Positions 1,694 to 15,997 of a stretch of DNA of 32,000 nt are shown one piece after another. The DNA is from Thermococcus kodakarensis KOD1 (GTDB taxonomy: Archaea > Methanobacteriota_B > Thermococci > Thermococcales > Thermococcaceae): contig NC_006624.1 in assembly GCF_000009965.1 (NCBI RefSeq), positions 330,001 through 362,000 on the forward strand, written 5' to 3'. The number at the start of each line of letters is the position of its first letter. The first letter of the stretch is position 1. The notes beneath the pieces were generated by a model, which saw nothing but the letters and a program-made list of their open reading frames with translations, ran no database searches and was not told the DNA's origin. The position numbers and the translations under genes were made by a program.

Positions 1694-1705
1694 GAGGTGA
1701 TGAAG

Positions 1706-2458
1706 ATGGTGTGGCCGTTTGGAAGGAAAAAGAAGAAGGCCGAACCGAGGCCCGGGATAGTAATGACAGATGACCAGTTCGCCGAACTCGTCCGCCTGGA
1801 CGACTTCAGCCTTGAGGAGAAAGTAGAGCAGAGAGTCGAGGAGCGCCTGAGGCAACAGAGAATACTCGCGCAGAGAATGAGCCAGATTAAGGAAACCTAT
1901 CAGAAACTCCTTGTCGCAGTCACGCCCGAGGAGGGGAGCATTATACTTGGCTTCCCCGAGGCTTACCTCATAAACTACGATGAGTACTGGATTTACTATC
2001 AGGAGCGCCCGCCGAGCTGGCTTGATTCAGTCTGGTGGAGTCTCGCCAGGTTCTTCGGCAAGAGGCCACCACACAAAGTCCTCAAGGCAAACAAGAAGAT
2101 CGTCCAGTTCAACAACGAAACAATAACCGTGTACTGCAAGACGATTGAAGAGATCGTCGGCACCGGCCAGCAAGAAGCCATCCCTATGGTCGTTCATCCA
2201 GCGATCTCCCGCGGTTGGGAGGCCTACGAGGCCGTCAAGGCCGAGCGGGACAAGTACCGCCAGAAATACTTTGACCTGCTCCACGAGGCCAAAAGAGAAG
2301 TCGAGCTCGCCCTACAGATCAACCCGCGCGTCAAGGTATACTGGAAGGAGAAAGAACAGCAGGGCAAGAAGCAGGAAGAGCGCTTCGGCGGCACAGAGAT
2401 GGCTTTCGAAGAGAATCCCGTAAAGCGGGAGCTGAAGAGCGTCCTCGGTGAGGGATGA
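1706..2458 (+). CDS. Hypothetical protein of the element (alternative starts at 1697 GTG or 1700 ATG)
   Basis: Long ORF with GC-rich codon usage like its neighbours. GAGGTGA SD at 1694-1700. Starts within a few nt of the ATPase gene stop (1691-1693). No recognisable motif. Confidence 0.6.
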   Translation: MVWPFGRKKKKAEPRPGIVMTDDQFAELVRLDDFSLEEKVEQRVEERLRQQRILAQRMSQIKETYQKLLVAVTPEEGSIILGFPEAYLINYDEYWIYYQERPPSWLDSVWWSLARFFGKRPPHKVLKANKKIVQFNNETITVYCKTIEEIVGTGQQEAIPMVVHPAISRGWEAYEAVKAERDKYRQKYFDLLHEAKREVELALQINPRVKVYWKEKEQQGKKQEERFGGTEMAFEENPVKRELKSVLGEG

Positions 2459-2742
2459 TGGAAGTGGTCGAAGACGTAGGGATTCCAGAGGACATTCTAA
2501 AGGACCTCGCCAGCAAGGACATTGCAGAGGAACCGCAGGCGAAGCCAAAGCAGAAGAAGGAAGAGAAGTCTTCAGCATGGGGACTGAAGAAAAAGAAGGA
2601 ACTGAACGAAGAGATACTGAAGGAGATCCAGAAGAAGCTCGCAGAAGCGTGGGAGCTCATGGGAACTGAATACGGGAGAAAATTAATAGAAGACGTGGCG
2701 GTCGAGGTGAAGAAGCTGTGCATAATCAATGATCTGCCTTAA
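2455..2742 (+). CDS. Small Lys/Glu-rich hypothetical protein
   Basis: ATGATG start overlaps the upstream stop (translational coupling). Charged low-complexity sequence. Confidence 0.5.
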   Translation: MMEVVEDVGIPEDILKDLASKDIAEEPQAKPKQKKEEKSSAWGLKKKKELNEEILKEIQKKLAEAWELMGTEYGRKLIEDVAVEVKKLCIINDLP

Positions 2743-2750
2743 CTACCCCT

Positions 2751-3722
2751 TCATAGCTCCAATAGTTTTTTCTCTAATTTTTCTTCGTCTTGAAAGAGTT
2801 CATCTTCTATCCTTTTAATCTTCTCTAATAACTCTCTTGTCAGTGTTTTTAATTCCTTTAGCTTCTTTTCCCTTTCTACGAGTTTATTGTATATCTCCGG
2901 CTTTTTCTCAAGGAGAAACTCGTAGAATACTTTTTTTGCCTTATTCCACACTTCTAGTCCATAAAGGCGTTTTTGCTCTGTATTCAGTCCTAATCTACCA
3001 TAAGGGGGGGCAGACAATTGGTTAGATTCTCTAGTTTCTGTATTGGATAGTGTAACGAGCTCCTCTAAAAGAGTATCGGCTTTAATAATATGTGCTTCTT
3101 TTATGTAGAATCTCTCAGCCTCTTCTTGGGATATCCGCTGTAGAGATTCTACGAGCTTAAATTCTCCCTTTAGTGCGTCTATGACCTCTCTTCTCAACCT
3201 ATTCGTATCCGTAACAAGTGAGTTATATTTCTCCAAATTAATATCATACTCCTTCAACAGCCTTTTGATTTTTCTTTTGAGCCTCTCTTCCAAACCTCGT
3301 TCTTGGTAACTCTTCGCCCATCCTGGAGTCTCCGGAGTCTCGGGAGTTAAGTTAGAATATTGAGGAAGCTCATAATAAATAGGCACCTCGTTATGTAGAG
3401 CATCATTAAGCATATCTTCAAGTTTCTTAATGTATCCAATCACTTCATTTTTCATATATTCAATGTTCATACGTTCTTTTTTCATTTCTATCAGGCTCTT
3501 GTTCATAAGTTCAGCTTGCTTTTTAGTTTGCTCAGCTGCCTCTGCAGTAGTAATTGCTTGGACTGCTATAATACCGGCCATAACAATATTCGCTAGAACC
3601 TCTGTAAATTGTAGGAGTATAGAATTTTGTGTATTAGCTCCAACTAAGGCACCAAATCCGGCAATTAAAACAAAAGCCATTATAATAACCATTACAATCA
3701 TTACTTTTCTATTGCTCTCCAA
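2751..3722 (-). CDS. Membrane-anchored long coiled-coil protein
   Basis: N-terminal hydrophobic segments (VMIVMVIIMAFVLIAGFGALVG and ANIVMAGIIAVQAI), followed by ~250 aa of heptad-like charged sequence. Confidence 0.6.
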   Translation of the reverse strand: MESNRKVMIVMVIIMAFVLIAGFGALVGANTQNSILLQFTEVLANIVMAGIIAVQAITTAEAAEQTKKQAELMNKSLIEMKKERMNIEYMKNEVIGYIKKLEDMLNDALHNEVPIYYELPQYSNLTPETPETPGWAKSYQERGLEERLKRKIKRLLKEYDINLEKYNSLVTDTNRLRREVIDALKGEFKLVESLQRISQEEAERFYIKEAHIIKADTLLEELVTLSNTETRESNQLSAPPYGRLGLNTEQKRLYGLEVWNKAKKVFYEFLLEKKPEIYNKLVEREKKLKELKTLTRELLEKIKRIEDELFQDEEKLEKKLLEL

Positions 3723-3808
3723 TCTTATTCCCTCCTACAAGGGGCAGTCTCAGTATCTGTCAAATTAAACTTTATATTGCTGTACTTTTTACTTTTTCTG
3801 GTGATTAC

Positions 3809-4951
3809 ATGCGGAGGAAGGCCCTAGTCCTAAGCCTAGTAGTGATCTTCCTAGCCGCATTTATCAGCGGATGTATCAACAACGGAGAACCAAAGACAGT
3901 GACAGTCACTAAAACAGTCAGGCCAGAAAAGGAAAGTAATGCTCCAGCGACTACAAGTGCCTCACCGAACACGGCATCACAGTTCACACAAACTACATCC
4001 TCACAGAAAACACCCAAGATAAACTGCAATGACGACTCTTGGAGAGATAACTTTAGCCAAGCCTTGACCTGCGCACTTGATCCCAAGATCAACCACAATT
4101 TTGATCCAGTATATTCCCTCTCCCTAACGGGCAACAAGACCAAAGACGCTCTCATCATTACAGACTTCCTCGTTAACTATGTGCATCTAGATGAGTTTGT
4201 AGAGAACCTGAGCATGAAGAAAGGCCATTATTACAACATTAAAACGCCCTACGAGCTTTTCCAGACGAGACAAGGAACTTATGCAGATATGGCTCTGTTC
4301 GGGGCTTATGCTCTAGCCAAGAACGGCTTTGAGACGTACCTCTTTGAAATAGCAACAACAAACGGCTTTGGAGTACTACCTGGCTTTAAGCTTATAGTTA
4401 ATCATCCATGGGTGCCGAACAACGACCCGCTAGTAATATTCTGGCCATTTAGAATACCAATGCGCCTCTCAGCGGCTTTAAAGCTCTTAAACCTCTCTGG
4501 AGAGACCCCTAAAAATGTAACTGTATACACAGTATCCTATAACTCAGGCAAATATAAAGTTGAGAAAGTTGGGACATATCCAGCCAGTGAATTCAAGTTT
4601 AATATTATGGAGTGGGTTCTTTTCGGATTCCCTGACTCAGAGACTATGAACAGGTTGCTTAGTAGAGACTTCCCCGGCTGTAAGTACACTACAAACCTCT
4701 CGGCAATATCCTCGAACCAAGAAGATGTAAAAAATATCAAAGTAGTGTTTCCATATGGAATCCTATTCTACAACGTTCCATTCAAACAGAGGTACACAGA
4801 AATCTTATACACTCTAATGATCTCAAACCAGGAAATCGCCAAAGATCTTCAGAATTGTAGAGTACTGCTCCTCGGTCCGGAGACTGACTTTGACTTCAAC
4901 AACCCACCAGCAAACTACACAGCAACATACAGCGGTTGGGTGAGCAGATAA
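3809..4951 (+). CDS. Putative lipoprotein, possibly with a degenerate transglutaminase-like core
   Basis: Signal peptide with lipobox FISGC. Ser/Thr-rich linker. RQGTYADMALFGAYALAKNGFETYLF resembles the G-x-C-x-x-F-A…G-I-P-x-R transglutaminase-like core, but Tyr sits at the catalytic Cys position (weak). GGTGAT SD and a TATA-like AAACTTTATATTG lie upstream. Confidence 0.55.
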   Translation: MRRKALVLSLVVIFLAAFISGCINNGEPKTVTVTKTVRPEKESNAPATTSASPNTASQFTQTTSSQKTPKINCNDDSWRDNFSQALTCALDPKINHNFDPVYSLSLTGNKTKDALIITDFLVNYVHLDEFVENLSMKKGHYYNIKTPYELFQTRQGTYADMALFGAYALAKNGFETYLFEIATTNGFGVLPGFKLIVNHPWVPNNDPLVIFWPFRIPMRLSAALKLLNLSGETPKNVTVYTVSYNSGKYKVEKVGTYPASEFKFNIMEWVLFGFPDSETMNRLLSRDFPGCKYTTNLSAISSNQEDVKNIKVVFPYGILFYNVPFKQRYTEILYTLMISNQEIAKDLQNCRVLLLGPETDFDFNNPPANYTATYSGWVSR

Positions 4952-5073
4952 CCCTTTCCTTTTCCCTAATAAGTCCAGTCGTTACCTTTAATATTTAGAT
5001 GAGCAATAATAACCGTACCGTAATATATTTAAGGGCCCCTGACATGTTCCATATTAGAGCCAAGAAATAGATC

Positions 5074-5670
5074 ATGGTGACTAGGATGTCCTATGAGAGC
5101 TTTGCTGAAAAAATAAAGTTTAGATCTGGAGAATTCGACAAAGAACTCTTCAAAAGGATCGTTGAATACATTATAGAAAAGGAATTAGTAACTCCTAAAA
5201 GCATAGAAGTATATAGGAGCGGTGTCGAAGTCAAGATACGAGCAATTGCAGAGATGATGTTAGTCGATGAATTTGATCTAGATATAGTCCAAGCAGTTGA
5301 TTATCTAAGTATTGCTTCATTTGTAATCTCAATGACCATACTTTCAAAAATAGAGGGGAACGAACCATCTGATGAGCTAGAAAAGTACATTATCGAAAAA
5401 TTATATACCCCACAGATTAAGGAAATGTTCCTTACCAGAAAATTCATGACGAACCCTATCTTGGAAGAATTTGAAGTCATTAAATTTGTTAAAGATACTC
5501 CTGAAGGGCCCCTTGAAAGCTATGGGGTAAGAATACTAATAGATAAATCAGGAGACAGAGATTTTGACGAGGTATTCCTCGAAACGACAAAAGGCACTCT
5601 CCAAGAGATTGTTAATTACATCAGCGAGGTGATCTCTGATGATGCCCGCAAGAATAGTGAAAAAGAATAA
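5074..5670 (+). CDS. Hypothetical protein, first gene of a three-gene operon
   Basis: ORF with a TATA-like TAATATATTTAAG ~45 nt upstream. Overlaps the next gene by 32 nt. No motif recognised. Confidence 0.55.
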   Translation: MVTRMSYESFAEKIKFRSGEFDKELFKRIVEYIIEKELVTPKSIEVYRSGVEVKIRAIAEMMLVDEFDLDIVQAVDYLSIASFVISMTILSKIEGNEPSDELEKYIIEKLYTPQIKEMFLTRKFMTNPILEEFEVIKFVKDTPEGPLESYGVRILIDKSGDRDFDEVFLETTKGTLQEIVNYISEVISDDARKNSEKE

Positions 5671-6118
5671 AACCTTTTACCATCCCTTTGAAAAGGTATT
5701 CTCTTACAGTAACGTTCGTGAGGTACGCTCTGACCTCATCATAGCTGAAAAGGAAACCTTATTAGATGACATTATCAATGAACTCAGAGAACATTATGGA
5801 CACGTATTCCATGAATCAGTATACACAGAGGATATCTCTGAGAATAAAGCAAAACGTGAAGACAAAATCAAGGCCATTGCTGAGGGTATATTAAAAACAA
5901 TAAAAGAAGTTCCTCACTTAAAGAGACTAGTGCCTATGATTAAAGTTGCTATAGACTTAAACGAAGATTACAACACGAACTTCTTCTATATTATCGTATC
6001 TCTACGGAAGGACAAGATAGAAGAAGCCGCTGATGCTTTTGATAAGCTAGAGGAGAACATCCTTTCTAAGTACCCTGATAAAGATATACGCATTCTCTAT
6101 ACACTCCAAAGTGCTTAA
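5639..6118 (+). CDS. Hypothetical protein, second gene of the three-gene operon
   Basis: GAGGTGAT SD 5 nt upstream of the ATG at 5639, located inside the end of the upstream gene. No nucleotidyltransferase GS…DxD motif. Confidence 0.55.
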   Translation: MMPARIVKKNKTFYHPFEKVFSYSNVREVRSDLIIAEKETLLDDIINELREHYGHVFHESVYTEDISENKAKREDKIKAIAEGILKTIKEVPHLKRLVPMIKVAIDLNEDYNTNFFYIIVSLRKDKIEEAADAFDKLEENILSKYPDKDIRILYTLQSA

Positions 6119-6139
6119 ATCCTGGAGGGATCCCCCGCA

Positions 6140-6718
6140 ATGGAACCCGAAGAATTCAAGGAACTTGCAAGATATTTAGAGGGACTCCTTAACGAACGCA
6201 ATATTACAAAAGAGATCTCAAATGAGGCCATCGTAAGAACTACAATTGGAAGATACTATTATTACATTTTTCTGAAACTCAGAAATGAGATTATTGATGC
6301 AATAGACAATACAATAGACGTGTATAAAAAGGAAAATCCCAAATATGTAGTTTCACTCACTCAGCTGAAAAAAGCTATAGAGCCTGTTTTACCTGGCACT
6401 AGCAAGTCATCAAAAACCAGTGTCCACCAAGTTATCCAACTGTTCCTGGATGAATTCGCAGACTTAACCGTAGCGGATGCCTTGTATAGACTCAGATGGC
6501 GTCGCAATTTTGCAGATTATCACTTAAAAACACCAATAGAAACCAAACTCCGTGGAGAAGAAATAACTATAAAATTCCAACGTGAAGAACTTGTAATGAT
6601 ACGGCGCGATATCGCAAAGATAGAGAAATGGTTGCAAGAAAAAAGATTTCCAATACATAGCGCACTAAACTCAGAAGAAGCTCCAGAAAAAATTGAAAGC
6701 ATACTAAAAACCAAATGA
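6140..6718 (+). CDS. HEPN-like protein (putative RNase/toxin domain)
   Basis: N-terminal helix AIVRTTIGRYYYYIFLKLRNEI resembles the HEPN sRaYYa.Fha helix. LYRLRWRRNFADYH contains an Rx5H / R..ADY HEPN signature. GGAGGGAT SD upstream. Confidence 0.5.
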   Translation: MEPEEFKELARYLEGLLNERNITKEISNEAIVRTTIGRYYYYIFLKLRNEIIDAIDNTIDVYKKENPKYVVSLTQLKKAIEPVLPGTSKSSKTSVHQVIQLFLDEFADLTVADALYRLRWRRNFADYHLKTPIETKLRGEEITIKFQREELVMIRRDIAKIEKWLQEKRFPIHSALNSEEAPEKIESILKTK

Positions 6719-6760
6719 AAATAATTTTTCATATCCTACTCATCTGTCAACACCTCTCAA

Positions 6761-6790
6761 TGAGACGACCGTTTAATGGTAAACCCATAG
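6761..6790 (+). promoter_or_regulatory. Degenerate copy of the conserved 30-nt box upstream of the AbrB paralogs (TGAGACGACCGTTTAATGGTAAACCCATAG), followed by hairpin GTCGGAC-aac-GTCCGAC (6817-6833)
   Basis: 19/30 matches to the 8871 box with a shared core TTAAYGGTAAACC. A strong TATA-like TTATAAAATATAT at ~6838-6850 precedes the ATG at 6892. Confidence 0.45.
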
Positions 6791-6891
6791 GCATTAATTC
6801 TCGAAAAATAAACAAGGTCGGACAACGTCCGACATAGTTATAAAATATATGACCTCAATAATTACGATAATTATACTAGGAGTTGAGGCCA

Positions 6892-7266
6892 ATGCCCGAC
6901 CAGGACGCCAGCGAAGCAAGGGTAGTCGAGCCACTAGCCAAGTTTCATGCGAAAGTCACTAGGGGTGGTCAGTTCACATTTCCATTATACACCCGGCTTT
7001 ATCATAACCTCGACGTTGGGGACTACGTTGAATTAATCATAAGAACCAAAGTGGATGGCGAAGTGCTCAGAGGGATGTTCATAGCCAGACTCGTTGATAA
7101 GGGCAATATTACAATACCCAAGGGCCTTAGGAGCGAGATGAAAATTGACCAGAATTCGATTATAGAAGTCATAGTTGTCAGGGCATACCGGCTGAAAGAC
7201 TTATTGGGAGACAAAGCCAAGTTTATACGTCAATTAGCCCTCAAAAAATACAAGATTCTCACTTGA
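6892..7266 (+). CDS. Tandem SpoVT/AbrB-domain DNA-binding protein, paralog 1 (divergent N-terminus)
   Basis: Two swapped-hairpin-like halves (GGQFTFPLYTRLYHNLDVGDYVELII and KGNITIPKGLRSEMKIDQNSIIEVIV). EPLAKFHAK is shared with paralogs 2-4. The ATG at 6892 sits in the same GAG-TGAG-CCAATG context as the other copies; the track start at 6883 is TTG. Confidence 0.65.
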   Translation: MPDQDASEARVVEPLAKFHAKVTRGGQFTFPLYTRLYHNLDVGDYVELIIRTKVDGEVLRGMFIARLVDKGNITIPKGLRSEMKIDQNSIIEVIVVRAYRLKDLLGDKAKFIRQLALKKYKILT

Positions 7267-7699
7267 ATCTTAGCTCTGTAAGCTTTTTGAGAATCCAAAA
7301 GCAAGAATAGACCATACCCAAAGATACCATAAAACTGGCAAGAACTAAGTACCCAAAAATTCTGTTGTGCGGTAAGCTTGCCCCACCAATTATTGAAAGT
7401 GTTAAGACAACAAGCAGAAACATGAACGTAACATAATATATGGTATAACTCTGTTTAAAGGACTTAAACTGTTGTAGTTCTCTATATATCTCTACATCGG
7501 GGAGGGCATGTAATATTGTAACTCCCACTAATACGAATCCCGCGAGGGCGCCTGAGATTGATGCCATTGTCCAGTAGAAATCGGGAGTAGGATCTAACAC
7601 TTTCAGAGGTCCATGAATGGTTAGAACTATCACACATATAAATGCAATAAGCCCCCCAACAATGCCCCTGCGAAGTATCTTGGGAAGCATTACACTCAT
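7259..7699 (-). CDS. Small integral membrane protein (~4 TM helices), second gene of a two-gene operon
   Basis: Four hydrophobic stretches (GIVGGLIAFICVIVLTI, ISGALAGFVLVGVTIL, YYVTFMFLLVVLTLSII, FGYLVLASFMVSLGMVY). Starts 17 nt after the upstream stop. The 3' end overlaps the convergent AbrB paralog 1 by 8 nt. Confidence 0.65.
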   Translation of the reverse strand: MSVMLPKILRRGIVGGLIAFICVIVLTIHGPLKVLDPTPDFYWTMASISGALAGFVLVGVTILHALPDVEIYRELQQFKSFKQSYTIYYVTFMFLLVVLTLSIIGGASLPHNRIFGYLVLASFMVSLGMVYSCFWILKKLTELRFK

Positions 7700-7716
7700 G
7701 ATTTAGAGCTACAATT

Positions 7717-8730
7717 TTAACCTTTTAAAGACTTTTCAATTTTGTCATATAGGTCATTGTAAGCCTCAATGATTTTATTATACATATATTCTGTGTCCAC
7801 TCTTGATAGCTCTTCCTTAGCACGGATAACCTTTTTAGTAGAAATCAGTTTGTCCTCAAAAATATGCTTTTCTTTTAGTTCGTGCGTTTTAGGATCTTCG
7901 TATTTTATAATGATATTCTCCACAACCCCTAATTTATCGTTTATCCTCATCAAGTCATTCAAAAGCGAAATTACGGTGTCTTTTGAGAGTCTCTTCTTTT
8001 TATACCGTCCATCCACTACTGCTTTTATTTCAACTAAGTCAGGCTCTAAGAGATAAATATAATCTCCTAACAAATCTGTTATGTCTTCTTCCATTTTCTT
8101 TTCATGTTTCATATAATAGGCATACTTTGTTGCTGCCATTTTTATATGCATTGAAACTACGCGAGGCGATCTTAAAAGTTCCTCAATAAACTCTCTATAG
8201 TATACCTCATCGAGATCAATTATATTTGGCTGTCCAAATAGATACTTGCTAAGGAAATATTTTAACTGATATACTGTAGGCCCCTCTTTATATCTCTCCA
8301 TCCCAACTATGCCATTAGGAAAAACAACAAAGTGGGTCGGATAATACAGTCTCTCCTTTCGGCTTTTATCTAACTGTATACCATCTTCATGACCAGCTTC
8401 ATCAATTTTTGTGGGAAGATCTCTCTCCTTCCCATACCCAATTCTCGCTGTGATAAGCCCTCTCTCAGGCCCACCCACCCATGGAATCAGATTGAATCTC
8501 GATGGATCGTCCCTAATTAGGATTAGATCTTGCCCTGGTGTATACCGAGTTTCTAAAATGCTATTCATGGATAGGTTACTATCAAGAAAATCAAATGGAT
8601 CATTTAGGAAATCTTCAAACTTTTTTCGAAACCTTGGGTCGAGTATTTTCCCCTGCTTGTAATTCTTCAAAATAGCGTCCCCTGGAATTAATCTGTAAAA
8701 GTATATCTTACGCTCCAGATACTCTTTCAT
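7717..8730 (-). CDS. 337-aa soluble hypothetical protein, first gene of a two-gene operon with the 4-TM protein
   Basis: Long AT-rich ORF. ATG at 8730 is preceded by GGGGGAC (the track start at 8757 is GTG). No catalytic motif recognised. Confidence 0.6.
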   Translation of the reverse strand: MKEYLERKIYFYRLIPGDAILKNYKQGKILDPRFRKKFEDFLNDPFDFLDSNLSMNSILETRYTPGQDLILIRDDPSRFNLIPWVGGPERGLITARIGYGKERDLPTKIDEAGHEDGIQLDKSRKERLYYPTHFVVFPNGIVGMERYKEGPTVYQLKYFLSKYLFGQPNIIDLDEVYYREFIEELLRSPRVVSMHIKMAATKYAYYMKHEKKMEEDITDLLGDYIYLLEPDLVEIKAVVDGRYKKKRLSKDTVISLLNDLMRINDKLGVVENIIIKYEDPKTHELKEKHIFEDKLISTKKVIRAKEELSRVDTEYMYNKIIEAYNDLYDKIEKSLKG

Positions 8731-8870
8731 ATTAGTCCCCCATCTAAGTTTACACACCCACTTAAATAATTTCCGTACGTAATCCTTACGCCCTACCTTA
8801 GTGTTTCAGTTTTACCCTTCTCATACCGCTTAGAATCCAGAGAGGTCAAGGTAAAGCCTGAGAAGGCTAC

Positions 8871-8900
8871 TGAATCAGTCGCTTAACGGTAAACCTTATG
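8871..8900 (+). promoter_or_regulatory. Conserved 30-nt box TGAATCAGTCGCTTAACGGTAAACCTTATG in the divergent intergenic region between the 337-aa gene and AbrB paralog 2
   Basis: 28/30 identical to 11468-11497. Contains a BRE/TATA-like GTAAACCTTATG. Followed by the weak inverted repeat CTTATG-n11-CATAAG. Confidence 0.55.
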
Positions 8901-8952
8901 AGGATTTCAACCATAAGAATAATTCGTAAAATCAGCACACTGAGGTGAGCCA

Positions 8953-9372
8953 ATGAAAGAAACCAAAGAACCACTAGCGAAGTTTCAAGCAAAGATGAAC
9001 AAGGATGGAAGGGTTAGCCTCCCAAAGCAAATAAAGGATGTTCTAGAACTTGAATCAGATGATTACCTAAAGGTTATAATCCGCAAGATAAAAGCAAAAA
9101 AAGATGAGGGAATTATCTATGTTTATGGGCAAGAATTTGCCATCCTAAGGGTTGGAGTCAGAGGATACGTTGTGGTTCCACAGAAGGTTCGTAGACAGCT
9201 CAAACTCAAACCAGATGATAGTGTTGAAATAGTAATCCTCGATTATTATCCATCAACCACCGATCCTCAAAACATTGGAAAGCTAACTGAAGCTACAAGA
9301 TTCAAATATCTTTTTTCACCAGAAACAGGAGATCCAAACGGAACTAGAAAATATGCAGAGGTGGTCTCATGA
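8953..9372 (+). CDS. Tandem SpoVT/AbrB-domain DNA-binding protein, paralog 2
   Basis: MKETKEPLAKFQAK leader. GRVSLPKQIKDVLELESDDYLKVII and RGYVVVPQKVRRQLKLKPDDSVEIVIL halves. GGTGAGCCA precedes the ATG. Confidence 0.7.
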   Translation: MKETKEPLAKFQAKMNKDGRVSLPKQIKDVLELESDDYLKVIIRKIKAKKDEGIIYVYGQEFAILRVGVRGYVVVPQKVRRQLKLKPDDSVEIVILDYYPSTTDPQNIGKLTEATRFKYLFSPETGDPNGTRKYAEVVS

Positions 9373-9794
9373 AAGAAACCAAAGAACCACTAGCGAAATT
9401 TCAAGCAAGGGTTAACAAAGACAACCGCGTAACTATCCCTCGGCCAATCCTCGAAGCATTCGGCCTAAAACAAAACGACTACGTCAAAGTTCTAATCAGA
9501 AAAATCGAAATATCAGACAAAACAGTTACGGTAATCGCTCAAGCCCTTCTGGCAGTGAAAATCGGAAAGTATGGAGCCATAACACTCCCAAAAAAACTCG
9601 TAAAAGAGTTTGAGTTGAGAGAAAACGAGCCGGTTGAAGTCATCATTTTGGATTATTACAAATTCGAGGAGTTAGTAAGTGAAAAAGGCAAAGAGCTTTT
9701 ATCCAAGCTTCAGTCAAGAAACAACTACTGGATTCTTCCGGCCGATTCTCAATATCTGTCTGAGATAGGTATCAAATACAAATATCTTTTTTGA
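9369..9794 (+). CDS. Tandem SpoVT/AbrB-domain DNA-binding protein, paralog 3
   Basis: ATGA overlap with paralog 2. NRVTIPRPILEAFGLKQNDYVKVLI and GAITLPKKLVKEFELRENEPVEVIIL halves. Its first 29 nt are identical to paralog 2, and the first 26 nt are identical across paralogs 2-4. Confidence 0.7.
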   Translation: MKETKEPLAKFQARVNKDNRVTIPRPILEAFGLKQNDYVKVLIRKIEISDKTVTVIAQALLAVKIGKYGAITLPKKLVKEFELRENEPVEVIILDYYKFEELVSEKGKELLSKLQSRNNYWILPADSQYLSEIGIKYKYLF

Positions 9795-9897
9795 GCGTTT
9801 AATATATACATATATATAATAATTCTTGAAAAAGAAGAAAGAAGAGAAGAGATAAGGCATGTTTTCTGTCCGCTGATGGCTTCTTTTCTGAAGGTTA

Positions 9898-9917
9898 AAT
9901 TTTTGTATCCAAAAATT
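9898..9917. repeat. 20-nt perfect palindromic repeat AATTTTTG-TATC-CAAAAATT, copy 1
   Basis: Identical to 10060-10079. 8-bp inverted arms with a 4-nt spacer. Confidence 0.8.
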
Positions 9918-10059
9918 CTGGCTGATTCAACTAGGAAAAGTAACGGCTCTTTGGATGAATAAGACGTTTTTAGAGCTTTGCACTTCTGTGCACTTAACTA
10001 CTTTTGAACGTTGCAAAATTGAGACCTCTAAATTATTACTTATTGTGGTATTTCAGCAG

Positions 10060-10079
10060 AATTTTTGTATCCAAAAATT
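10060..10079. repeat. 20-nt perfect palindromic repeat AATTTTTG-TATC-CAAAAATT, copy 2
   Basis: Identical to 9898-9917, 162 bp away, inside a ~400-bp non-coding AT-rich region. Confidence 0.8.
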
Positions 10080-10155
10080 AGACGTAACAACTCTGCCCAA
10101 CGTTGAACTTCTCCAGCCACACAAAACTTATAAACTTTCCATCCGTACGATTTAT

Positions 10156-10168
10156 GTGGAAATTCCAC
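10156..10168. promoter_or_regulatory. Palindrome GTGGAA-A-TTCCAC preceded by CCGTACGATTTATG; candidate promoter/operator of the 53-aa RHH-like gene
   Basis: Perfect 6-bp arms. The position and flanking CCGTAC-AT-TTA-G motif mirror the site at 12213-12243 upstream of the paralogous RHH gene. Confidence 0.45.
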
Positions 10169-10202
10169 TTAAGTGAAATATCCACAATAAGGTGGTGATG
10201 GG

Positions 10203-10364
10203 ATGCCGAAGAGGAGGAAGTGGAGGGCTGTGAGAAGGATCGAGGTTCAGCTTCCGCCGGAGAAGGCGGATGAGCTTGAGCAGGCTAAGGGAAAGCTCTC
10301 TTGGGGCGACTTCGTTTGGAAACTTTGGGAGTTCTGGAAGCTTCACCACCCTGAAACATCTTGA
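10203..10364 (+). CDS. Small RHH-like protein (53 aa), paralog of the 12266-12433 product; not in the ORF track
   Basis: My translation is MPKRRKWRAVRRIEVQLPPEKADELEQAKGKLSWGDFVWKLWEFWKLHHPETS. It aligns with KRFEAWIPYEVYKEMEAVKQRLGASWSELVQSMWEVYK of the 12266 ORF. GGTGGTGAT SD upstream. Confidence 0.55.
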   Translation: MPKRRKWRAVRRIEVQLPPEKADELEQAKGKLSWGDFVWKLWEFWKLHHPETS

Positions 10365-10375
10365 AGGTGTTATGA

Positions 10376-10552
10376 ATGCCAGCGAAGAGATACCAGCGAC
10401 GTTCAGCAGGCCCTGGACGGCCACGAAAATACGGGGAAGACTTAAAGAAGTTCCAATCTCCAGTTCCCGAATCAACATACGACGGGCTGGTCCCATTATA
10501 CTCGTTGTGCACTGTGCATAATGATTATGCAAGATGCATAACACTTATATAG
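10376..10552 (+). CDS. Small protein (58 aa) with a GPGRPRK AT-hook-like motif; looks like a truncated paralog of the N-terminus of the 12439-13467 product; not in the ORF track
   Basis: My translation is MPAKRYQRRSAGPGRPRKYGEDLKKFQSPVPESTYDGLVPLYSLCTVHNDYARCITLI. The 12439 protein starts MRIPARGPGRPRKWKSP. AGGTG SD 6 nt upstream. Confidence 0.45.
   Translation: MPAKRYQRRSAGPGRPRKYGEDLKKFQSPVPESTYDGLVPLYSLCTVHNDYARCITLI
10515..10531. promoter_or_regulatory. Palindrome TGCATAAT-g-ATTATGCA with a third TGCATA and the TATA-like CTTATATAG; candidate promoter/operator for the 49-aa ORF
   Basis: Perfect 8-bp arms. The TATA-like box at 10544-10552 lies ~32-40 nt upstream of the ATG at 10584. A 12-bp palindrome TTCCGTACGGAA at 10557-10568 lies between them. 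Confidence 0.45.
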
Positions 10553-10583
10553 TTTCTTCCGTACGGAATTATGGTGAGAGAAG

Positions 10584-10733
10584 ATGGCAAAATTTAATGG
10601 GTACGAACTGACCCTAGAAACTCCAGAAGAGCTCCAAAACTTTGTCATGGCATTCGAAAAAGCCAACAAACGCAACCCAAAAGAAGTAGAAGACACCGTT
10701 AAGAGAGCCCTGGCTATCGCCGGCCTTATCTGA
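10584..10733 (+). CDS. Small hypothetical protein (49 aa), convergent with and overlapping the GNAT gene by 8 nt; not in the ORF track
   Basis: GGTGA SD 8 nt upstream of the ATG. My translation is MAKFNGYELTLETPEELQNFVMAFEKANKRNPKEVEDTVKRALAIAGLI. Confidence 0.4.
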   Translation: MAKFNGYELTLETPEELQNFVMAFEKANKRNPKEVEDTVKRALAIAGLI

Positions 10734-11310
10734 GTTCTTTACCTCCCAAATGTTTTATTAAAGCCCTTCTAACTTCCATCGCTTCATTAACAAACGGATA
10801 GAATAATTCATATGTGCCACCCTTAGAAACAACCTGGAATCCACTTGCTAGAGGGTCTCTTTCAGGATTCAAATAAAACCTCTTTGCCACTTTCTTATCA
10901 GCGTGAAGAGACAACCCTACACCACCAATTTGAGCCGCATAAAGAACCGCATAAGGCTTAATTACCTTTGCTAGTAGTTCTCCGCCAATTCTCTTTCCCC
11001 GATATTCCTTCTGAAGACAGAACTGGCCAAGAAGAATAGTGGGCACAGAAGAATACTTGATGTCCATTCCCACCAACTTTACGAGCTTCTTCCTCAAGTC
11101 TTCAATAAGTTCCTTTTTAGATTCTTCCATATCCTTACGGATTTTAAGGCTAACTATAAACGGAGAAAGAGTAAAATAAGAGATGAGTTGACCTTCCTCA
11201 CCAAGAACAACAAAAACCGTTGAAAGGCATCTCCTATGAACATCCCACGCTTCTCGCCTAGCAAACTTCGTCTGCTCTTCTCCACCCTCACCACAATCAA
11301 CACCCCTCAT
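10726..11310 (-). CDS. GNAT-family N-acetyltransferase
   Basis: Acetyl-CoA motif A (LQKEYRGKRIGGELL = Q/R-x-x-G-x-G/A). Size (194 aa) and beta-alpha pattern are typical of GNATs. Confidence 0.65.
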   Translation of the reverse strand: MRGVDCGEGGEEQTKFARREAWDVHRRCLSTVFVVLGEEGQLISYFTLSPFIVSLKIRKDMEESKKELIEDLRKKLVKLVGMDIKYSSVPTILLGQFCLQKEYRGKRIGGELLAKVIKPYAVLYAAQIGGVGLSLHADKKVAKRFYLNPERDPLASGFQVVSKGGTYELFYPFVNEAMEVRRALIKHLGGKELR

Positions 11311-11467
11311 TACTCTGCATTATCCTCTCTCAAAAATTCTACCCGAACCTTCTCTCCAAGAGTATCCAATGTAACTTCGTAGGGTTTTATCATCCCGACA
11401 CCAAACCCAAGTCCCGATGCAGGCTTTAAGTAAATTACGGATGGAAAGATTACTTCGCACTGTCTTG

Positions 11468-11497
11468 TGAATCAGTCACCTAACGGTAAACCTTATG
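11468..11497 (+). promoter_or_regulatory. Conserved 30-nt box TGAATCAGTCACCTAACGGTAAACCTTATG between the GNAT gene and AbrB paralog 4, followed by hairpin TGTATGCCC-ga-GGGCATACA (11496-11515)
   Basis: 28/30 identical to 8871-8900. The 9-bp-arm inverted repeat overlaps its 3' end. Confidence 0.55.
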
Positions 11498-11563
11498 TAT
11501 GCCCGAGGGCATACAAAAAACAAGCAATACACCATTAACTAAAATCCAAAAGAGGGTGAGCCA

Positions 11564-12001
11564 ATGAAAGAAACCAAAGAACCACTAGCAAAATTCCACG
11601 CACGGCTCGATAAGGAAGGGAGGATAGCTATCCCCAAGACAATTAGAGAAGCGTTGAACATAGAGAAGAACGATTACGTTGAGGTTATTGTTCGTAAAAT
11701 TGAGATCAATCCTGAGAAATCAATAATCAAAGTTCTTAAGCAAGGGTATTTGGTAGCCAGGGTAGGAGCTAAAGGGTTAATTTTCCTTCCAGCCGATCTC
11801 AAACGTGATTTCGACCTCCACGAGAAAGATATCATTGAAGTTTTGCTGCTTGGATATCACAAATTTGACGAATTGGTCAGTGAAAAAGGCAAAAAACTGC
11901 TCTCAAAGGTTCAAACATCGGGCAAATGGATTGAGGTCAAGCAGGATGAACTCATTCCAGAGGATAAAGTAATGAAACATTTCACTTATGTTTTTGTTTG
12001 A
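11564..12001 (+). CDS. Tandem SpoVT/AbrB-domain DNA-binding protein, paralog 4
   Basis: MKETKEPLAKFHAR leader. GRIAIPKTIREALNIEKNDYVEVIV and KGLIFLPADLKRDFDLHEKDIIEVLLL halves. The C-terminal FDELVSEKGKKLLSK is shared with paralog 3. Confidence 0.7.
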   Translation: MKETKEPLAKFHARLDKEGRIAIPKTIREALNIEKNDYVEVIVRKIEINPEKSIIKVLKQGYLVARVGAKGLIFLPADLKRDFDLHEKDIIEVLLLGYHKFDELVSEKGKKLLSKVQTSGKWIEVKQDELIPEDKVMKHFTYVFV

Positions 12002-12224
12002 GTTTAATATTAAGTACTTAAAATTAAAGAAAGAGAAAAGAGAAGAATAGAGAAGAGTGTTGGTCTTTTGGCGTATTCTCATGGCTTCTTTAGAACCTCT
12101 CAAATTAATATGCAGGAAAAATATTTCTAATTACTACTATAAAGCGTCATAAGTTGAACTCTTTTGGAGACCCTTATACACTGTTGTCCACGAAATCTTT
12201 TTAAGGAAATCTTCCGTACTATCT

Positions 12225-12243
12225 TACGAGAAATATTCTCGTA
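12225..12243. promoter_or_regulatory. Palindrome TACGAGAA-ata-TTCTCGTA preceded by CTTCCGTACTATCTTACG; candidate promoter/operator of the backbone RHH gene
   Basis: Perfect 8-bp arms ~25 nt upstream of the ATG at 12266. Its architecture parallels 10144-10168. Confidence 0.45.
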
Positions 12244-12265
12244 TGAGAAAAAATCTCGTAAGGTG

Positions 12266-12433
12266 ATGGCAGTGGGAAGGCGGGGGAAGTATGATGGACC
12301 TGTCAAACGCTTCGAAGCGTGGATACCATATGAAGTCTACAAGGAGATGGAGGCTGTAAAACAGCGGTTAGGTGCTTCTTGGTCAGAACTTGTTCAGAGC
12401 ATGTGGGAAGTATACAAAGCTACGAGAAGGTGA
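12266..12433 (+). CDS. Small RHH-like DNA-binding protein (55 aa)
   Basis: The internal ATG at 12266 follows an AT-rich promoter-like region. The track start at 12164 is TTG and spans the palindrome. RFEAWIPYEVYKEMEAVKQRLGASWSELV fits a strand-helix-helix pattern. Confidence 0.55.
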   Translation: MAVGRRGKYDGPVKRFEAWIPYEVYKEMEAVKQRLGASWSELVQSMWEVYKATRR

Positions 12434-12438
12434 ATCTT

Positions 12439-13467
12439 ATGAGAATACCCGCGAGAGGTCCAGGCCGACCAAGAAAATGGAAGAGCCCGCTAATACAATG
12501 GAGAAGCGATGTACCTTTAGAGGATTTTGAATTTGCTGAGGAGAAAAGGACTGAATTGGGCCTCTCGCGGGCAGAATTCTTCCATGCTCTCTTACACCAC
12601 ACCAACTGGAGTGTGGTAGAGCTTCATGCAGAAAATAAAAAGAAAGACGAGCTTCTCGAAGAGAAAGACCGCTACATTGAGGAGCTGGTGAAACTTCTTG
12701 AAAAAGAGCGTCAGGCCCGTGAAAGGGCCGAGAAAGAGGCCGAAGCCTGGAAGCAAAAGTACTACGAGCTTAAGGGCGAGAAGCCAGCCCACACCTACAA
12801 CGAGGGCAAGCTCCTCCGCCAGCTTGCTGAGAACGCGAAGGAAGACGTCTCGTGGGCCGACCTCTGCGCTGAGGTTCTTGACCTAAGAGATGAGAAGAAG
12901 ATGCGCCGGCTCATGAGCCTTGCCTTCAACATCGAGAAGTCGGACAAGAACAACTACAAGAGCATTTTCTACCCGAAGAGGACAGCTCCAGAGTTCAAGG
13001 GTTGGGTTCTCAAGCGTCCGGAGCGCGACGGCCCGGTTCTGCTGGTCGACTACGTCCTCTACAAGGAAGACACCCTCAAGGCGGCTAAGGGCCTCGCTGT
13101 GGGGGAGGCCGCGGCCGAGAAGGTTCCTGAGGTCAAGCCTTTGAAGACCGGAAAGGCGGCCGAGCGCTGGCTTGAGATGTTCTTCGAGGTCGTCCACCGC
13201 AATTACATGGACTTGATCAACCAGAAGCGCGGCAAGGACGCGGTGAAGTACCTGGAAGAGGCCGTGCCGGAGAAGCTTGAGCAGGTCCTCCAGGACATTG
13301 ATCCAGCAGACTGGCGCCGCGCAGTGCTGGCAGTGCTCGATGAGCTTGAGGCCAGGGCTGAAGGGGATGAGAGGTATGAAGTTTTCGTTTCTAACCTGCG
13401 GCGCGTTGTTCTGCGCGCCCTGAACGAGTTTTACGCAAAACCTGCCGAGGTGAAGGCCGATGTCTGA
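12439..13467 (+). CDS. 342-aa protein with N-terminal GPGRPRK AT-hook-like / RHH-like region, a central coiled coil and an unknown C-terminal domain
   Basis: GGTGA SD 6 nt upstream of the ATG at 12439. LSRAEFFHALLHH is RHH-like. EKERQARERAEKEAEAWKQKYYELKGEK is a coiled coil. Confidence 0.6.
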   Translation: MRIPARGPGRPRKWKSPLIQWRSDVPLEDFEFAEEKRTELGLSRAEFFHALLHHTNWSVVELHAENKKKDELLEEKDRYIEELVKLLEKERQARERAEKEAEAWKQKYYELKGEKPAHTYNEGKLLRQLAENAKEDVSWADLCAEVLDLRDEKKMRRLMSLAFNIEKSDKNNYKSIFYPKRTAPEFKGWVLKRPERDGPVLLVDYVLYKEDTLKAAKGLAVGEAAAEKVPEVKPLKTGKAAERWLEMFFEVVHRNYMDLINQKRGKDAVKYLEEAVPEKLEQVLQDIDPADWRRAVLAVLDELEARAEGDERYEVFVSNLRRVVLRALNEFYAKPAEVKADV

Positions 13468-13897
13468 GTTTTCTGGAAGGGAGATTGACTGGAGGGCATC
13501 TAAGCCCCGACTAAGTGAGAGACTCCCGATTTCCAAGAAGACCAAGGAGTACCTCCTGGAGTTCGTCAGAAGCCACAGGAAGGAAGTTGAGACCGTGGAT
13601 GAGGCGATCTTGTTCCTTCTGAGGTTCTACTACCAGCACAGGGGAAAGACCATGAGTGAGGCCGACTTCTGGTCTTGGGTCGCTTCGGAGAAGCGCCGCC
13701 TTGACGCGGTGCTTGAGCAGGTCGAGGAAGTGCCGACCCTGCTGGAGTACATCGAGCGCGAGCTCCAGGTAGCTCGCGACACGGCGTTCTCACTCTCCGC
13801 TCGCGGTGAGAAGGAGAACGCGGCATACTGGACAGGGTACGCCGATGCCTTGGAAGACCTGCTGAAGAAGATTGAAAGAAGGGAGGTGAGGGCATGA
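13460..13897 (+). CDS. Hypothetical protein
   Basis: 8-nt overlap with the upstream gene. GC-rich coding signal. Confidence 0.55.
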   Translation: MSEFSGREIDWRASKPRLSERLPISKKTKEYLLEFVRSHRKEVETVDEAILFLLRFYYQHRGKTMSEADFWSWVASEKRRLDAVLEQVEEVPTLLEYIERELQVARDTAFSLSARGEKENAAYWTGYADALEDLLKKIERREVRA

Positions 13898-14082
13898 GAG
13901 AGTATTCGTTTGTTTTCGTGAAGATAGATGGGGAATGGATAGATGAGGACGATGCGATAGAGGAGTATGGCATGAGTTACGTGGACATGGTTGAGGACTC
14001 TTTCGAGCTGAAAGTCGAGGCAGAGAATTGGAAGGATGCTGAGGAGAAGATCCGCATCGCCGCGGAGGCGCTGAGGAGGTGA
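13894..14082 (+). CDS. Small acidic hypothetical protein
   Basis: ATGA overlap with the upstream gene. Confidence 0.45.
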   Translation: MREYSFVFVKIDGEWIDEDDAIEEYGMSYVDMVEDSFELKVEAENWKDAEEKIRIAAEALRR

Positions 14083-14086
14083 GGGC

Positions 14087-14407
14087 ATGACTACGATGAT
14101 TGCGACCGTTGATGAGTTGATAGACTTTCTCAAGAAGCACAAAAAGAAGGGCTTCAAGTACGCCATAATTGCGATGGATCCTATTGGTGGGTGGAGGGCC
14201 CCATCAGGGAAAAAGAAGTACTACCAAGCCAATTTCGCCATATCGAGAGGTGTTTTCGCGAAGGACGATCTCACAAACCTCATGAAGGCCGCAGGCTTTG
14301 CAGTCTTCCTATACAAGGACACCGACCCCTTTGACGAGGACACGAAGGCCTACTTCGAGGAGGCCGATTCAGCTTCTTCATCACCTTCCGAGGAGGGTCG
14401 CTCATGA
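14087..14407 (+). CDS. Hypothetical protein
   Basis: GAGGTGAGGGC SD precedes the ATG. Part of the overlapping gene train. Confidence 0.5.
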   Translation: MTTMIATVDELIDFLKKHKKKGFKYAIIAMDPIGGWRAPSGKKKYYQANFAISRGVFAKDDLTNLMKAAGFAVFLYKDTDPFDEDTKAYFEEADSASSSPSEEGRS

Positions 14408-14595
14408 TCGCGCGAGTTCCTTCTGCTTTCCTCGTTCAGCAGGCTTTGGAAGACAGCCCGGCCACTTTTTCAGAGCTGGTCAGGAAAACCGGCCTTCCAG
14501 CCAAGGAGGTCGCTTCAGCCCTGGACGAGCTCGGGCGCAAGGGCGCGGTTGTGAAGGACGAGTATGTCTTTGAGCTTAGGGGGGTGAGGGGATGA
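14404..14595 (+). CDS. Small winged-helix (wHTH) DNA-binding protein
   Basis: ATFSELVRKTGLPAKEVASALDELGRKGAVV is a typical HTH plus wing pattern. ATGA overlaps on both sides. Confidence 0.55.
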   Translation: MIARVPSAFLVQQALEDSPATFSELVRKTGLPAKEVASALDELGRKGAVVKDEYVFELRGVRG

Positions 14596-14903
14596 ACTAT
14601 CTCATCATCATCGACGGCGAGCAGTTCATGGTCGAGGCTCCTCACGTCTTGGCCGCTTGGGGGGTCGCGATAGCTCAGGCCGCTCTGATGCTCCATGAGG
14701 GTCGGCTCCGCTCGGAAGATGTCGAAATCTATGTTTTCTCAGAGCGCGAGGCAAAGCGCGAGGGGGTTCCCGTCATCTTCCCAAAGCGCCTGAACAGGCT
14801 TGAGGTCCTTCAGAAGGTCGAGAGCTTGAGGGATGAGCTCCGCAGGGTGAGGCCGCACGAGGGTCAGGCGACGCTTGAGCAGTTCGTCGGGGTGAGGGCG
14901 TGA
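14592..14903 (+). CDS. Hypothetical protein
   Basis: Overlapping start and stop with its neighbours. Confidence 0.5.
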   Translation: MNYLIIIDGEQFMVEAPHVLAAWGVAIAQAALMLHEGRLRSEDVEIYVFSEREAKREGVPVIFPKRLNRLEVLQKVESLRDELRRVRPHEGQATLEQFVGVRA

Positions 14904-15478: not shown

Positions 15479-15485
15479 CGGGGCG

Positions 15486-15746: not shown

Positions 15747-15997
15747 GCGAGGAGTGGTATTATTGGGATATTGACCTTCGTGATGGGTGGGCTATTGTCT
15801 TGGCAAGAACTGAAGAGGAAGCCATTGAAACTCTTCGCAAGGAGGTACAAGACCTCTACTGTGATGAGATAGGTGAGTGGGTTGAAGAGGTCCTAACTAA
15901 GGAGAAACCACGTCCCGTCAAATTTGCGAGACCCCTTGAAGGCAAGAAAATCACAGAGCCTGAGCTCTATGAATTAGCTGTCTCTCCGTACTGCTGA
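15743..15997 (+). CDS. Small hypothetical protein
   Basis: ATGA overlap with the upstream gene. Confidence 0.45.
   Translation: MSEEWYYWDIDLRDGWAIVLARTEEEAIETLRKEVQDLYCDEIGEWVEEVLTKEKPRPVKFARPLEGKKITEPELYELAVSPYC

Follow-up and report, generated by a model that had tools for sequence, protein, structure and literature searches.

The Rex system of phage lambda, made up of RexA and RexB, was the first phage-exclusion system to be described. The mechanism of Rex is still poorly understood (PMC11077077). Rex-like systems are also found in actinobacteriophages (Sbash gp30/31, CarolAnn gp44/43 and Butters), where divergent RexA-like proteins of 337-372 aa are paired with membrane proteins and encoded near immunity repressors; they act by excluding other phages, and non-specific DNA binding is reported for their RexA homologues (PMC11077077). 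The reported structural relatives of RexA include RdgC (PMC11077077). A 2022 genome survey with DefenseFinder, using the Pfam Rex models, recorded RexAB in Proteobacteria only, and RexAB goes unmentioned in a 2026 survey that covered 7747 archaeal genomes.

Here, we describe a pair of genes in Thermococcus kodakarensis KOD1 that, judged by sequence profiles and a predicted structure, is probably a two-component module of the Rex type that serves exclusion or abortive infection and forms part of the cargo of an integrated pT26-2-family plasmid. All positions refer to the window, which is the whole 32-kb stretch of DNA that was analyzed.

Results

The two genes lie 17 nt apart on the minus strand, within a stretch (about 3000-12500) whose GC content is 0.36-0.44, while values outside range from 0.47 to 0.59 and mostly exceed 0.51 (Table 1). 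In its longest form, the open reading frame of the soluble gene starts with GTG and encodes 346 aa (7717..8757, minus strand). The ATG at 8730, which yields a 337-aa product, is supported as the start because homologues of this protein begin with MKEYLERKIYFY and a Shine-Dalgarno-like GGGGG run lies upstream. Both genes are real, since they have been kept as a pair at 40-80 % identity across archaeal loci, at least six of which are independent. The layout claimed in the original prediction, namely two closely spaced minus-strand genes in an AT-rich stretch with AbrB-type genes on both sides, one convergent and two divergent, is confirmed by the ORF list, the GC profile and Pfam.

Table 1. Coordinates of the gene pair and of the features around it in the window
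Feature	Position	Strand	Description
AbrB-type paralog 1	6883..7266	+	Convergent; shares 8 nt at its 3' end with the RexB-like gene; Pfam 6.1e-4 (short of the curated cutoff)
RexB-like gene	7259..7699	-	146 aa, four TM helices, predicted N-in/C-in
RexA-like gene	7717..8730	-	337 aa, DUF6731 match one bit below the curated cutoff; predicted split globular domain with an inserted dimerisation-type domain
Divergent control region	8731..8952		Separates the RexA-like gene from AbrB paralog 2; holds a promoter-like motif and the 30-nt box
Promoter-like motif, copy 1	8759-8774	-	
Promoter-like motif, copy 2	10158-10175	+	27 nt before the 53-aa gene 10203-10364
30-nt box	8871-8900, repeated at 11468-11497		Copies 93 % identical
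Tandem AbrB/SpoVT-type genes (paralogs 2 and 3)	8953-9372, 9369-9794	+	Divergent from the pair; Pfam MazE_antitoxin/SpoVT-AbrB 1.6e-8, 7.3e-13
tRNA-Glu	17142-17219		

The element that hosts the pair is an integrated pT26-2-family plasmid, and collinearity links the window to the integrated plasmid PHV1 and to an element of T. aciditolerans. The island also holds toxin-antitoxin-like genes of the HEPN, GNAT and AbrB/MazE-fold types. The tandem AbrB/SpoVT-type genes (8953..9794) are candidate repressors of the module or of the element, and a divergent AbrB gene is also found upstream of the pair in relatives (loci L001, L002 and L003-L005). The promoter-like pattern GGAAATT-N2/4-TTAAGTG occurs exactly twice in the 32 kb, where 0.01 occurrences are expected by chance, and both copies end 27-28 nt ahead of a start codon; the exact pattern was absent from all fetched relative loci. 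With this motif in common with the promoter of the 53-aa gene, and with the divergent AbrB genes, the proposed link of the pair to the regulatory region of the element holds.

The pair is strictly kept together in archaea, bacteria and an archaeal virus. A gene for a 4-TM partner follows the DUF6731 gene directly and in the same direction in each of the loci that were informative. These loci belong to Thermococcales (L001, L002, L003-L005 and L007), to Methanococcus (L008), to metagenome contigs (L010, L012, L019, L020 and L021) and to a Geoglobus pleolipovirus, in which the pair corresponds to gp18/gp19; in one further locus (P0088) the partner was recognized by size only. Pyrococcus horikoshii PHV1 and bacterial metagenome contigs are among the carriers. 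Genes for restriction-modification, a Cas4-like nuclease, RelE and HEPN proteins are found among the neighbors of the pair in relatives, and the Geoglobus virus genes are adjoined by wHTH regulators, with a RelE gene nearby. The searches turned up just a handful of close homologues of the 337-aa gene in Thermococcales, and the gene has a patchy distribution on mobile elements. Locus scans yielded only a single genome locus and a single, previously known metagenome locus, and gave nothing in viral contigs with queries A1 or P0028. A plasmid collection yielded no match, and a word-index search with a 46-sequence alignment retrieved only 7 proteins.

The 337-aa protein, described in the original prediction as part of an orphan operon and as having no recognizable motif, matches the Pfam family DUF6731 (PF20505) at 26.0 bits (E 7.8e-6), one bit below the curated cutoff of 27 bits. 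PF20505.4 is also the precomputed annotation of P0001, a database protein of identical sequence. An exhaustive HMM search places the family in bacteria, archaea and viruses, with 213 clusters at 50 % identity. Both labels are therefore wrong, as the family is large and the pair recurs. DUF6731 was unmentioned in the literature searched. Within a set of 46 family members, the Pfam DUF6731 model matched 19 and Pfam RexA matched two (best 5.2e-6).

On the evidence of profile comparisons, the 337-aa protein is a remote homologue of lambda RexA. In a PDB-wide search with the family profile, RexA (8twq) ranked first, aligned at a conserved HF..F.N..G.E..GP..L..YL core. The hhalign value against RexA was 80.5 % with 46 sequences in the family profile and 90.6 % with 138 sequences against lambda RexA alone; against a three-sequence RexA profile it reached 95 % (E 3.8e-8, 185 columns). 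An archaeal-only DUF6731 profile was too shallow to find RexA (2.9 %), just as an archaeal-only partner profile was too shallow for RexB (0.2 %), and both links emerged only once diverse family members had joined the profiles. Direct PDB sequence searches with the 337-aa protein gave coiled-coil noise only. The narrow RexA models of Pfam (PF15969) and PADLOC did not match it at E<=1, which makes it a remote relative outside the narrowly defined RexA family.

Structure prediction points in the same direction. A model calculated by AF2 with only six close homologues was useless (pLDDT 47), and the prediction was rerun, template-free, with 46 family members (pLDDT 87.7, pTM 0.81). The resulting model has the fold type of 8TWQ, in which a split globular domain is interrupted by a beta/alpha dimerisation domain. 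Its best Foldseek match in the PDB was RexA (8twq_A/B; E 3.7e-6, probability 1.00, about 355 aligned columns). The whole-chain TM-score to 8twq is low (0.31-0.38), which may result from a differing domain orientation. Of the two DNA-binding residues of lambda RexA, hhalign pairs R219 with K276 and K221 with E278, leaving only R219 with a basic equivalent, in an alignment whose accuracy is limited at 17 % identity. K276 is invariant across the archaeal clade, and lysine is also the family consensus.

The 146-aa protein does have the four hydrophobic helices originally claimed. They span residues 12-30, 45-63, 87-105 and 118-136, and those of lambda RexB (144 aa) span 8-26, 48-66, 84-102 and 116-134. 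RexB was its sole PADLOC match (E 1.1e-3); the same model matched five of ten orthologues (best 7.7e-5) and the partner from an independent metagenome contig (6.8e-4; L010). A profile of 10 partners aligned with four RexB sequences at 78 % (hhalign, E 1.8e-5, score 37.5), with a similarity that spans TM1-TM3. When residues were shuffled within segments so that topology was preserved, none of 200 shuffles reached 37.5 (mean 13.3 +/- 2.5, maximum 21.6). We thus have moderate confidence, from these profile comparisons, in a homology to lambda RexB that goes beyond common hydrophobicity. Among the tested partners, none matched the Pfam RexB model (PF15968) at E<=10, a direct PDB sequence search with the 146-aa protein returned nothing, and neither protein of the pair was found in NCBIfam or PHROGs.

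Discussion

The Thermococcus pair resembles lambda rexAB in several respects. The genes are adjacent and co-directional with the soluble component first, separated by a gap of nearly the same size (15 nt in lambda); the 337-aa protein is predicted to have the RexA fold and shares the conserved core motif, and the membrane protein matches RexB in length and in the position of its helices. Both pairs reside on an integrated mobile element beside regulator genes of that element. In contrast, sequence identity is just about 12-17 %, and the curated RexA and RexB Pfam models are blind to the pair. The 337-aa protein exceeds RexA in length by 58 aa, and since the profile alignment is limited to RexA residues 82-269, the additional residues fall in its N-terminal part. 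Whereas the lambda pair is co-transcribed with the CI repressor, the regulators here are of the AbrB/SpoVT type and divergent. The pair is moreover found in a hyperthermophilic archaeon, on an integrated pT26-2-type plasmid. By description, it is also like the actinobacteriophage systems in combining a divergent RexA-like protein with a membrane protein near regulators.

We propose that the 337-aa protein would serve as a RexA-type sensor, probably dimeric and with the RexA/RdgC fold, whose target is DNA or a nucleoprotein intermediate that arises during replication of a foreign virus or plasmid. On being triggered, this sensor would activate the 146-aa protein, a putative RexB-type four-helix membrane protein, which could then dissipate the membrane potential, so that the invader would fail to multiply in the cell. 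The pair lies beside regulators on its mobile element, and by analogy to cI-rexA-rexB of lambda the module may feed back on the maintenance switch of the element. We infer for this pair an exclusion phenotype, along with dimerisation, DNA sensing and channel activity. The original prediction, in which a sensor and a multi-TM protein make up an exclusion or abortive-infection module of a mobile element, is now backed by remote homology to RexA and RexB, with defense as the proposed function.

Alternatively, the pair might mainly serve the life cycle of its element. The RexA-like protein, together with the AbrB-type regulators, would bias the switch of the element among its states (integrated, quiescent, and replicating or excised), a role that lambda RexA plays together with CI/Cro. 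The membrane partner would then modulate this switch as an accessory, and exclusion would be of secondary importance or would not occur. We consider this reading unlikely. The conservation of a divergent AbrB gene beside the pair in archaeal loci, the wHTH regulators next to the Geoglobus genes, and the motif held in common with the promoter of the 53-aa gene, called an RHH regulator by the original prediction, are all consistent with it, and lambda RexA is described as acting on the bistable switch without a need for RexB (PMC11077077). However, strict retention of the 4-TM partner speaks for a central membrane step, and some loci of bacteria and Methanococcus have restriction-modification or nuclease surroundings with no obvious repressor.

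It is less probable still that the pair is an addiction module resembling a toxin-antitoxin system, in which the soluble protein would hold a toxic membrane protein in check and thereby stabilize the integrated plasmid. Tight coupling of two genes on a mobile element would fit such a role, as would the toxin-antitoxin-like genes of the island and the RelE gene near the Geoglobus pair. The homology nevertheless points to RexA and RexB and to no classical toxin-antitoxin pair, the large soluble gene comes first as in Rex, and no antitoxin of 337 aa that has an RdgC-like fold is known to us.

RdgC is a chromosomal housekeeping protein in bacteria and, to our knowledge, has no membrane partner. 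It provided the only structural match to a housekeeping function, being second-best against the PDB (2owl, E 1.4e-4) by virtue of a common two-domain fold, and the 337-aa protein could on this basis be an RdgC-like nucleoid or recombination protein that serves the DNA metabolism of the plasmid, next to a functionally unrelated membrane gene. We judge this very improbable, given that the family profile scores 0.1 % against E. coli RdgC, which amounts to no sequence-profile similarity, as opposed to 90-95 % against RexA; the presence of the partner in all informative loci and the patchy, mobile distribution of the gene also speak against it. Membership in RdgC was rejected because the fold alone is in common, and a virion or replication function was rejected for want of structural support. 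The comparison with Kiwa (KwaA/KwaB) made in the original prediction fails, and we give next to no credence to this or another known Abi system, because the likeness ends at one soluble and one multi-TM protein, neither component matches in sequence (PADLOC gave no KwaA, KwaB or Abi model match at E<=1, and Pfam no DUF4868 match), and the gene order is reversed, a difference that the original prediction had itself pointed out.

Beyond the preferred reading of a Rex-like exclusion module, we tentatively entertain a broader one, to which we give somewhat less than an even chance. DUF6731 proteins and their 4-TM partners could constitute a large unrecognized branch of Rex that spans bacteria, archaea and archaeal viruses. 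The pair of Thermococcales might form, with the AbrB-type regulators, an 'immunity region' of pT26-2 elements that excludes rivals by membrane depolarization and tunes the switch of the element between its integrated and active states.

If DUF6731 and its partner are a remote branch of RexAB, a domain of unknown function gains a functional hypothesis, and Rex-type architecture would extend to archaea, archaeal viruses and the integrated plasmids of hyperthermophiles. Formerly blank genes of the well-studied PHV1 and pT26-2 elements would acquire a candidate function. Such a branch would also supply diverse sequences and thermostable proteins for studying the crosstalk between a RexA-type sensor and a RexB-type membrane protein. 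We know of no membrane-depolarizing abortive-infection system shown in archaea so far; a depolarizing Rex branch would be the first, operating at around 85 degrees C. As distant relatives of RexA and RexB, judged by their sequences, these two proteins would place the classic bacterial 'suicide on infection' type of module in hyperthermophilic archaea.

Results

The 337-aa protein is homologous to RexA of phage lambda, a conclusion on which independent lines of evidence agree. The original prediction had called the protein an orphan, a label that does not hold: it matches the Pfam family DUF6731 (E 7.8e-6, 26.0 bits, cutoff 27), and an identical database entry carries a precomputed PF20505 annotation. 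A word-indexed search returned six close homologues at 40-100 % identity, encoded by Thermococcus aciditolerans or found in hydrothermal metagenomes, and an exhaustive HMMER scan with the close-homologue alignment against 1.84 billion cluster representatives revealed a family of 213 clusters at E<=1e-3, nearly all of them ~300-aa proteins matched over most of their length. Among 46 aligned family members, DUF6731 was matched by 19 and Pfam RexA by two (best 5.2e-6).

When the 46-sequence profile was compared with all PDB sequences, the lambda RexA crystal structure (8TWQ) ranked first with a weak E-value of 0.13, the match falling on the most conserved motif of the family. Using hhalign, this profile against lambda RexA alone gave 80.5 %, a 138-sequence profile against the single RexA sequence 90.6 %, and the larger profile against three RexA sequences 95.0 % (E 3.8e-8), with 185 columns placing query residues 120-334 onto RexA 82-269. 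Lambda R219 aligns with the invariant K276, and K221 with E278; double mutation of these two RexA residues abolishes DNA binding.

Given the 46-sequence alignment and no templates, AlphaFold2 produced a confident model (pLDDT 87.7, pTM 0.81), whereas with six sequences it did not (pLDDT 47). Only three of 350,542 PDB chains matched the confident model at E<=1e-3 in Foldseek: both 8TWQ chains (best E 3.7e-6, probability 1.00, ~355 aligned columns) and E. coli RdgC (2OWL, E 1.4e-4); an inner-kinetochore chain appeared with low probability. RdgC and the kinetochore proteins Iml3/Chl4 are the relatives of the RexA fold named in the RexA structure paper (PMC11077077). With RdgC the family profile has no similarity in sequence (0.1 % in hhalign), and within this fold we therefore group the family with RexA. 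Whole-chain TM-scores to 8TWQ are low (0.31-0.38), which could reflect a different domain orientation, since RexA consists of two hinged domains and its crystal structure shows the closed state (PMC11077077). Uncharacterised tailed-phage proteins in BFVD have the same fold (best E 4.5e-16, TM 0.59-0.63).

For the 146-aa protein, the sequence comparisons lend moderate support to remote homology with RexB. As originally described, it has four hydrophobic helices (12-30, 45-63, 87-105 and 118-136 in a Kyte-Doolittle scan), nearly coincident in position with those of the 144-aa lambda RexB (8-26, 48-66, 84-102 and 116-134). In both proteins the N terminus, the TM2-TM3 loop and the C terminus contain basic residues, which suggests the same N-in/C-in topology. 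RexB was the only one of 5027 PADLOC models that it matched (E 1.1e-3, residues 44-112 on model 43-110); five of ten archaeal orthologues (best 7.7e-5) and an unrelated-looking metagenome-contig partner (6.8e-4) matched as well, while the Pfam RexB model matched none of the partners tested. Since transmembrane proteins yield spurious matches, we compared partner profiles with a four-sequence RexB profile and with controls in which RexB columns were permuted only inside their own TM or loop segment, keeping the topology. An 8-partner profile scored 29.6 (100 shuffles: 13.6 +/- 3.2, maximum 27.7), and a 10-partner profile 37.5 (78 %, E 1.8e-5, 85 in-register columns spanning TM1 to TM3; 200 shuffles: 13.3 +/- 2.5, maximum 21.6).

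The two genes co-occur as a conserved pair, so that the co-occurrence test proposed with the original prediction turned out in its favour. At every informative locus, meaning one whose contig continues past the DUF6731 gene (L011 and L014 end at it and were left out), a co-directional gene for 143-201 aa follows directly, with a spacing of -37 to +21 nt. These loci comprise T. aciditolerans (L002), P. horikoshii (L003-L005), a Thermococcus MAG (L007) and a vent contig of the Thermococcales group (L001, 40 % identity), Methanococcus maripaludis (L008/9), metagenome or sequencing-run contigs (L010, L012/13, L019, L020, L021/22), and gp18/gp19 of Geoglobus ahangari pleomorphic virus 1; at a further locus (P0088) the partner was judged by size only. 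The partners align with one another, and most share G-F-[VI] in TM2 and R-[CS]-x-W-[IV]-L at the end of TM4, from which those of L020 and L021 deviate.

In T. kodakarensis the pair lies, as described before, in an AT-rich island (GC 0.36-0.44 across ~3-12.5 kb of the window, 0.47-0.59 and mostly >0.51 elsewhere), its genes 17 nt apart and flanked by AbrB paralogs, all three of which match the SpoVT-AbrB/MazE Pfam model. Homologue starts MKEYLERKIYFY agree with the 337-aa product initiated at the ATG at 8730, which a G-rich, ribosome-binding-like run directly upstream also favours.

Features of the window around the gene pair
Feature	Position	Strand	Remarks
DUF87/HerA-type ATPase gene	230-1693		
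Gene for 323-aa protein	2751-3722	-	hydrophobic N terminus
Three co-directional genes	5074-6718	+	
HEPN-domain gene	6140-6718	+	192 aa; PADLOC HEPN_IX 5.6e-7, PHROG 5176 1.2e-5
SpoVT-AbrB/MazE-type gene	6883-7266	+	Pfam match; convergent, 8-nt overlap with pair
RexB-like ORF	7259..7699	-	146 aa (ORF listing)
RexA-like ORF	7717..8757	-	346 aa counted from GTG (ORF listing)
GGAAATT..TTAAGTG copy	8759-8774	-	
30-nt box	8871-8900		
SpoVT-AbrB/MazE-type gene	8953-9372	+	Pfam match; divergent from pair
SpoVT-AbrB/MazE-type gene	9369-9794	+	Pfam match; divergent from pair
GGAAATT..TTAAGTG copy	10158-10175	+	
Small ORF	10203-10364		
Small ORF	10584-10733		
GNAT acetyltransferase gene	11310->10726	-	PHROG acetyltransferase 1.2e-15
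30-nt box	11468-11497		
AbrB/SpoVT-type paralog	11564-12001		
tRNA-Glu	17142-17219		end of collinear block

At the sequence level the likeness between the promoters of the 337-aa and 53-aa genes holds up: the window contains exactly two copies of GGAAATT-N(2 or 4)-TTAAGTG (chance expectation 0.01, for a pattern defined after both sites had been seen), each ending 27-28 nt ahead of a start codon. The pattern is not conserved in related loci. Three of the four AbrB/SpoVT-type paralogs have an 89-nt 5' end in common (74-76 % identity, MKETKEPLAKF...), and the two copies of an upstream 30-nt box are 93 % identical, suggesting a shared operator or promoter.

By tblastx, window ~296-16,890 is collinear with the pair-bearing loci of P. 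horikoshii and T. aciditolerans, the ATPase gene being among the common genes. The P. horikoshii locus sits within PHV1 (1,061,525-1,083,228), an integrated pT26-2-family plasmid; plasmids of this family insert at tRNA genes, in the case of TKV2 at tRNA-Glu (PMC6972569). From this collinearity and the tRNA-Glu at the block end, we conclude that the AT-rich stretch is a region of cargo or regulatory genes within a larger integrated plasmid. The island is only the middle of this pT26-2-family-like element, whose left end lies beyond the window; the window itself yielded no att repeat.

The island has further genes. The HEPN gene follows two ORFs (198 and 159 aa) that matched no family, and together the three are a candidate for a second module, of defence or toxin type. 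The GNAT gene and the adjoining small ORFs may form a GNAT/RHH-type toxin-antitoxin arrangement of atypical orientation. At the island edge, the 323-aa protein has weak matches to SLATT (0.015) and HerA (0.0036).

A divergent AbrB-type gene lies upstream of the RexA-like gene in four of five archaeal pair loci. The exception is the Thermococcus MAG (JALTCK010000037.1, L007 1120-2923), where a tRNA lies upstream and no AbrB gene does; the pair is ~200 nt from tRNA-Glu and the same host gene, a different or decayed form of the element. In the archaeal pleolipovirus of G. ahangari (BK065157.1, L024 7219-8683), gp18/gp19 are a DUF6731 gene and its 4-TM partner, preceded by genes for winged-helix regulators and followed by one for a RelE/ParE toxin. 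The M. maripaludis pair (JACHED010000005.1, L008 1-10978; 325 + 201 aa) is flanked by N6-methyltransferase, Eco57I-type and HSDR_N restriction-modification genes and a PI-PLC-domain gene, and looks like a defence-island setting. Cas4-like and YhcG nucleases neighbour the L012 pair.

Discussion

The analysis shows the homology of the pair, its architecture, its pairing and its place on a mobile element, and the interpretation best supported is a Rex-like module for exclusion or abortive infection. How it would sense, interact and act as a channel, and with what phenotype, we infer from lambda: the RexA-type sensor would respond to entry of a competing virus or plasmid and activate the RexB-type membrane protein, which could then collapse membrane energetics.

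As the chief alternative, the pair may serve mostly to control, jointly with the AbrB paralogs, the switch of its own element. The AbrB or winged-helix regulators beside the pair parallel the position of rexAB beside CI-type repressors in lambda and several actinophages (PMC11077077), and in lambda RexA acts on the switch with CI/Cro; such a role is compatible with exclusion. An addiction module is less likely, as is RdgC-type housekeeping, against which the 0.1 % profile result speaks; taken jointly with the Kiwa analogy of the original prediction, these readings are less likely or contradicted by the Pfam, PADLOC and RdgC profile results.

Using Pfam models, DefenseFinder found RexAB only in Proteobacteria (PMC9090908), and Rex goes unmentioned in a 2026 survey of archaeal immunity. 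We found no mention of DUF6731 in the literature searched, and the annotation of GahPV1 gp18/19 and of the PHV1 genes reads 'hypothetical'. RexAB itself is already known; judged by sequence, the Rex-like pair appears to be a distant branch of RexAB, not linked to it before, that occurs in archaea and on their mobile elements; the proposal is testable, and the pair is not categorically new.
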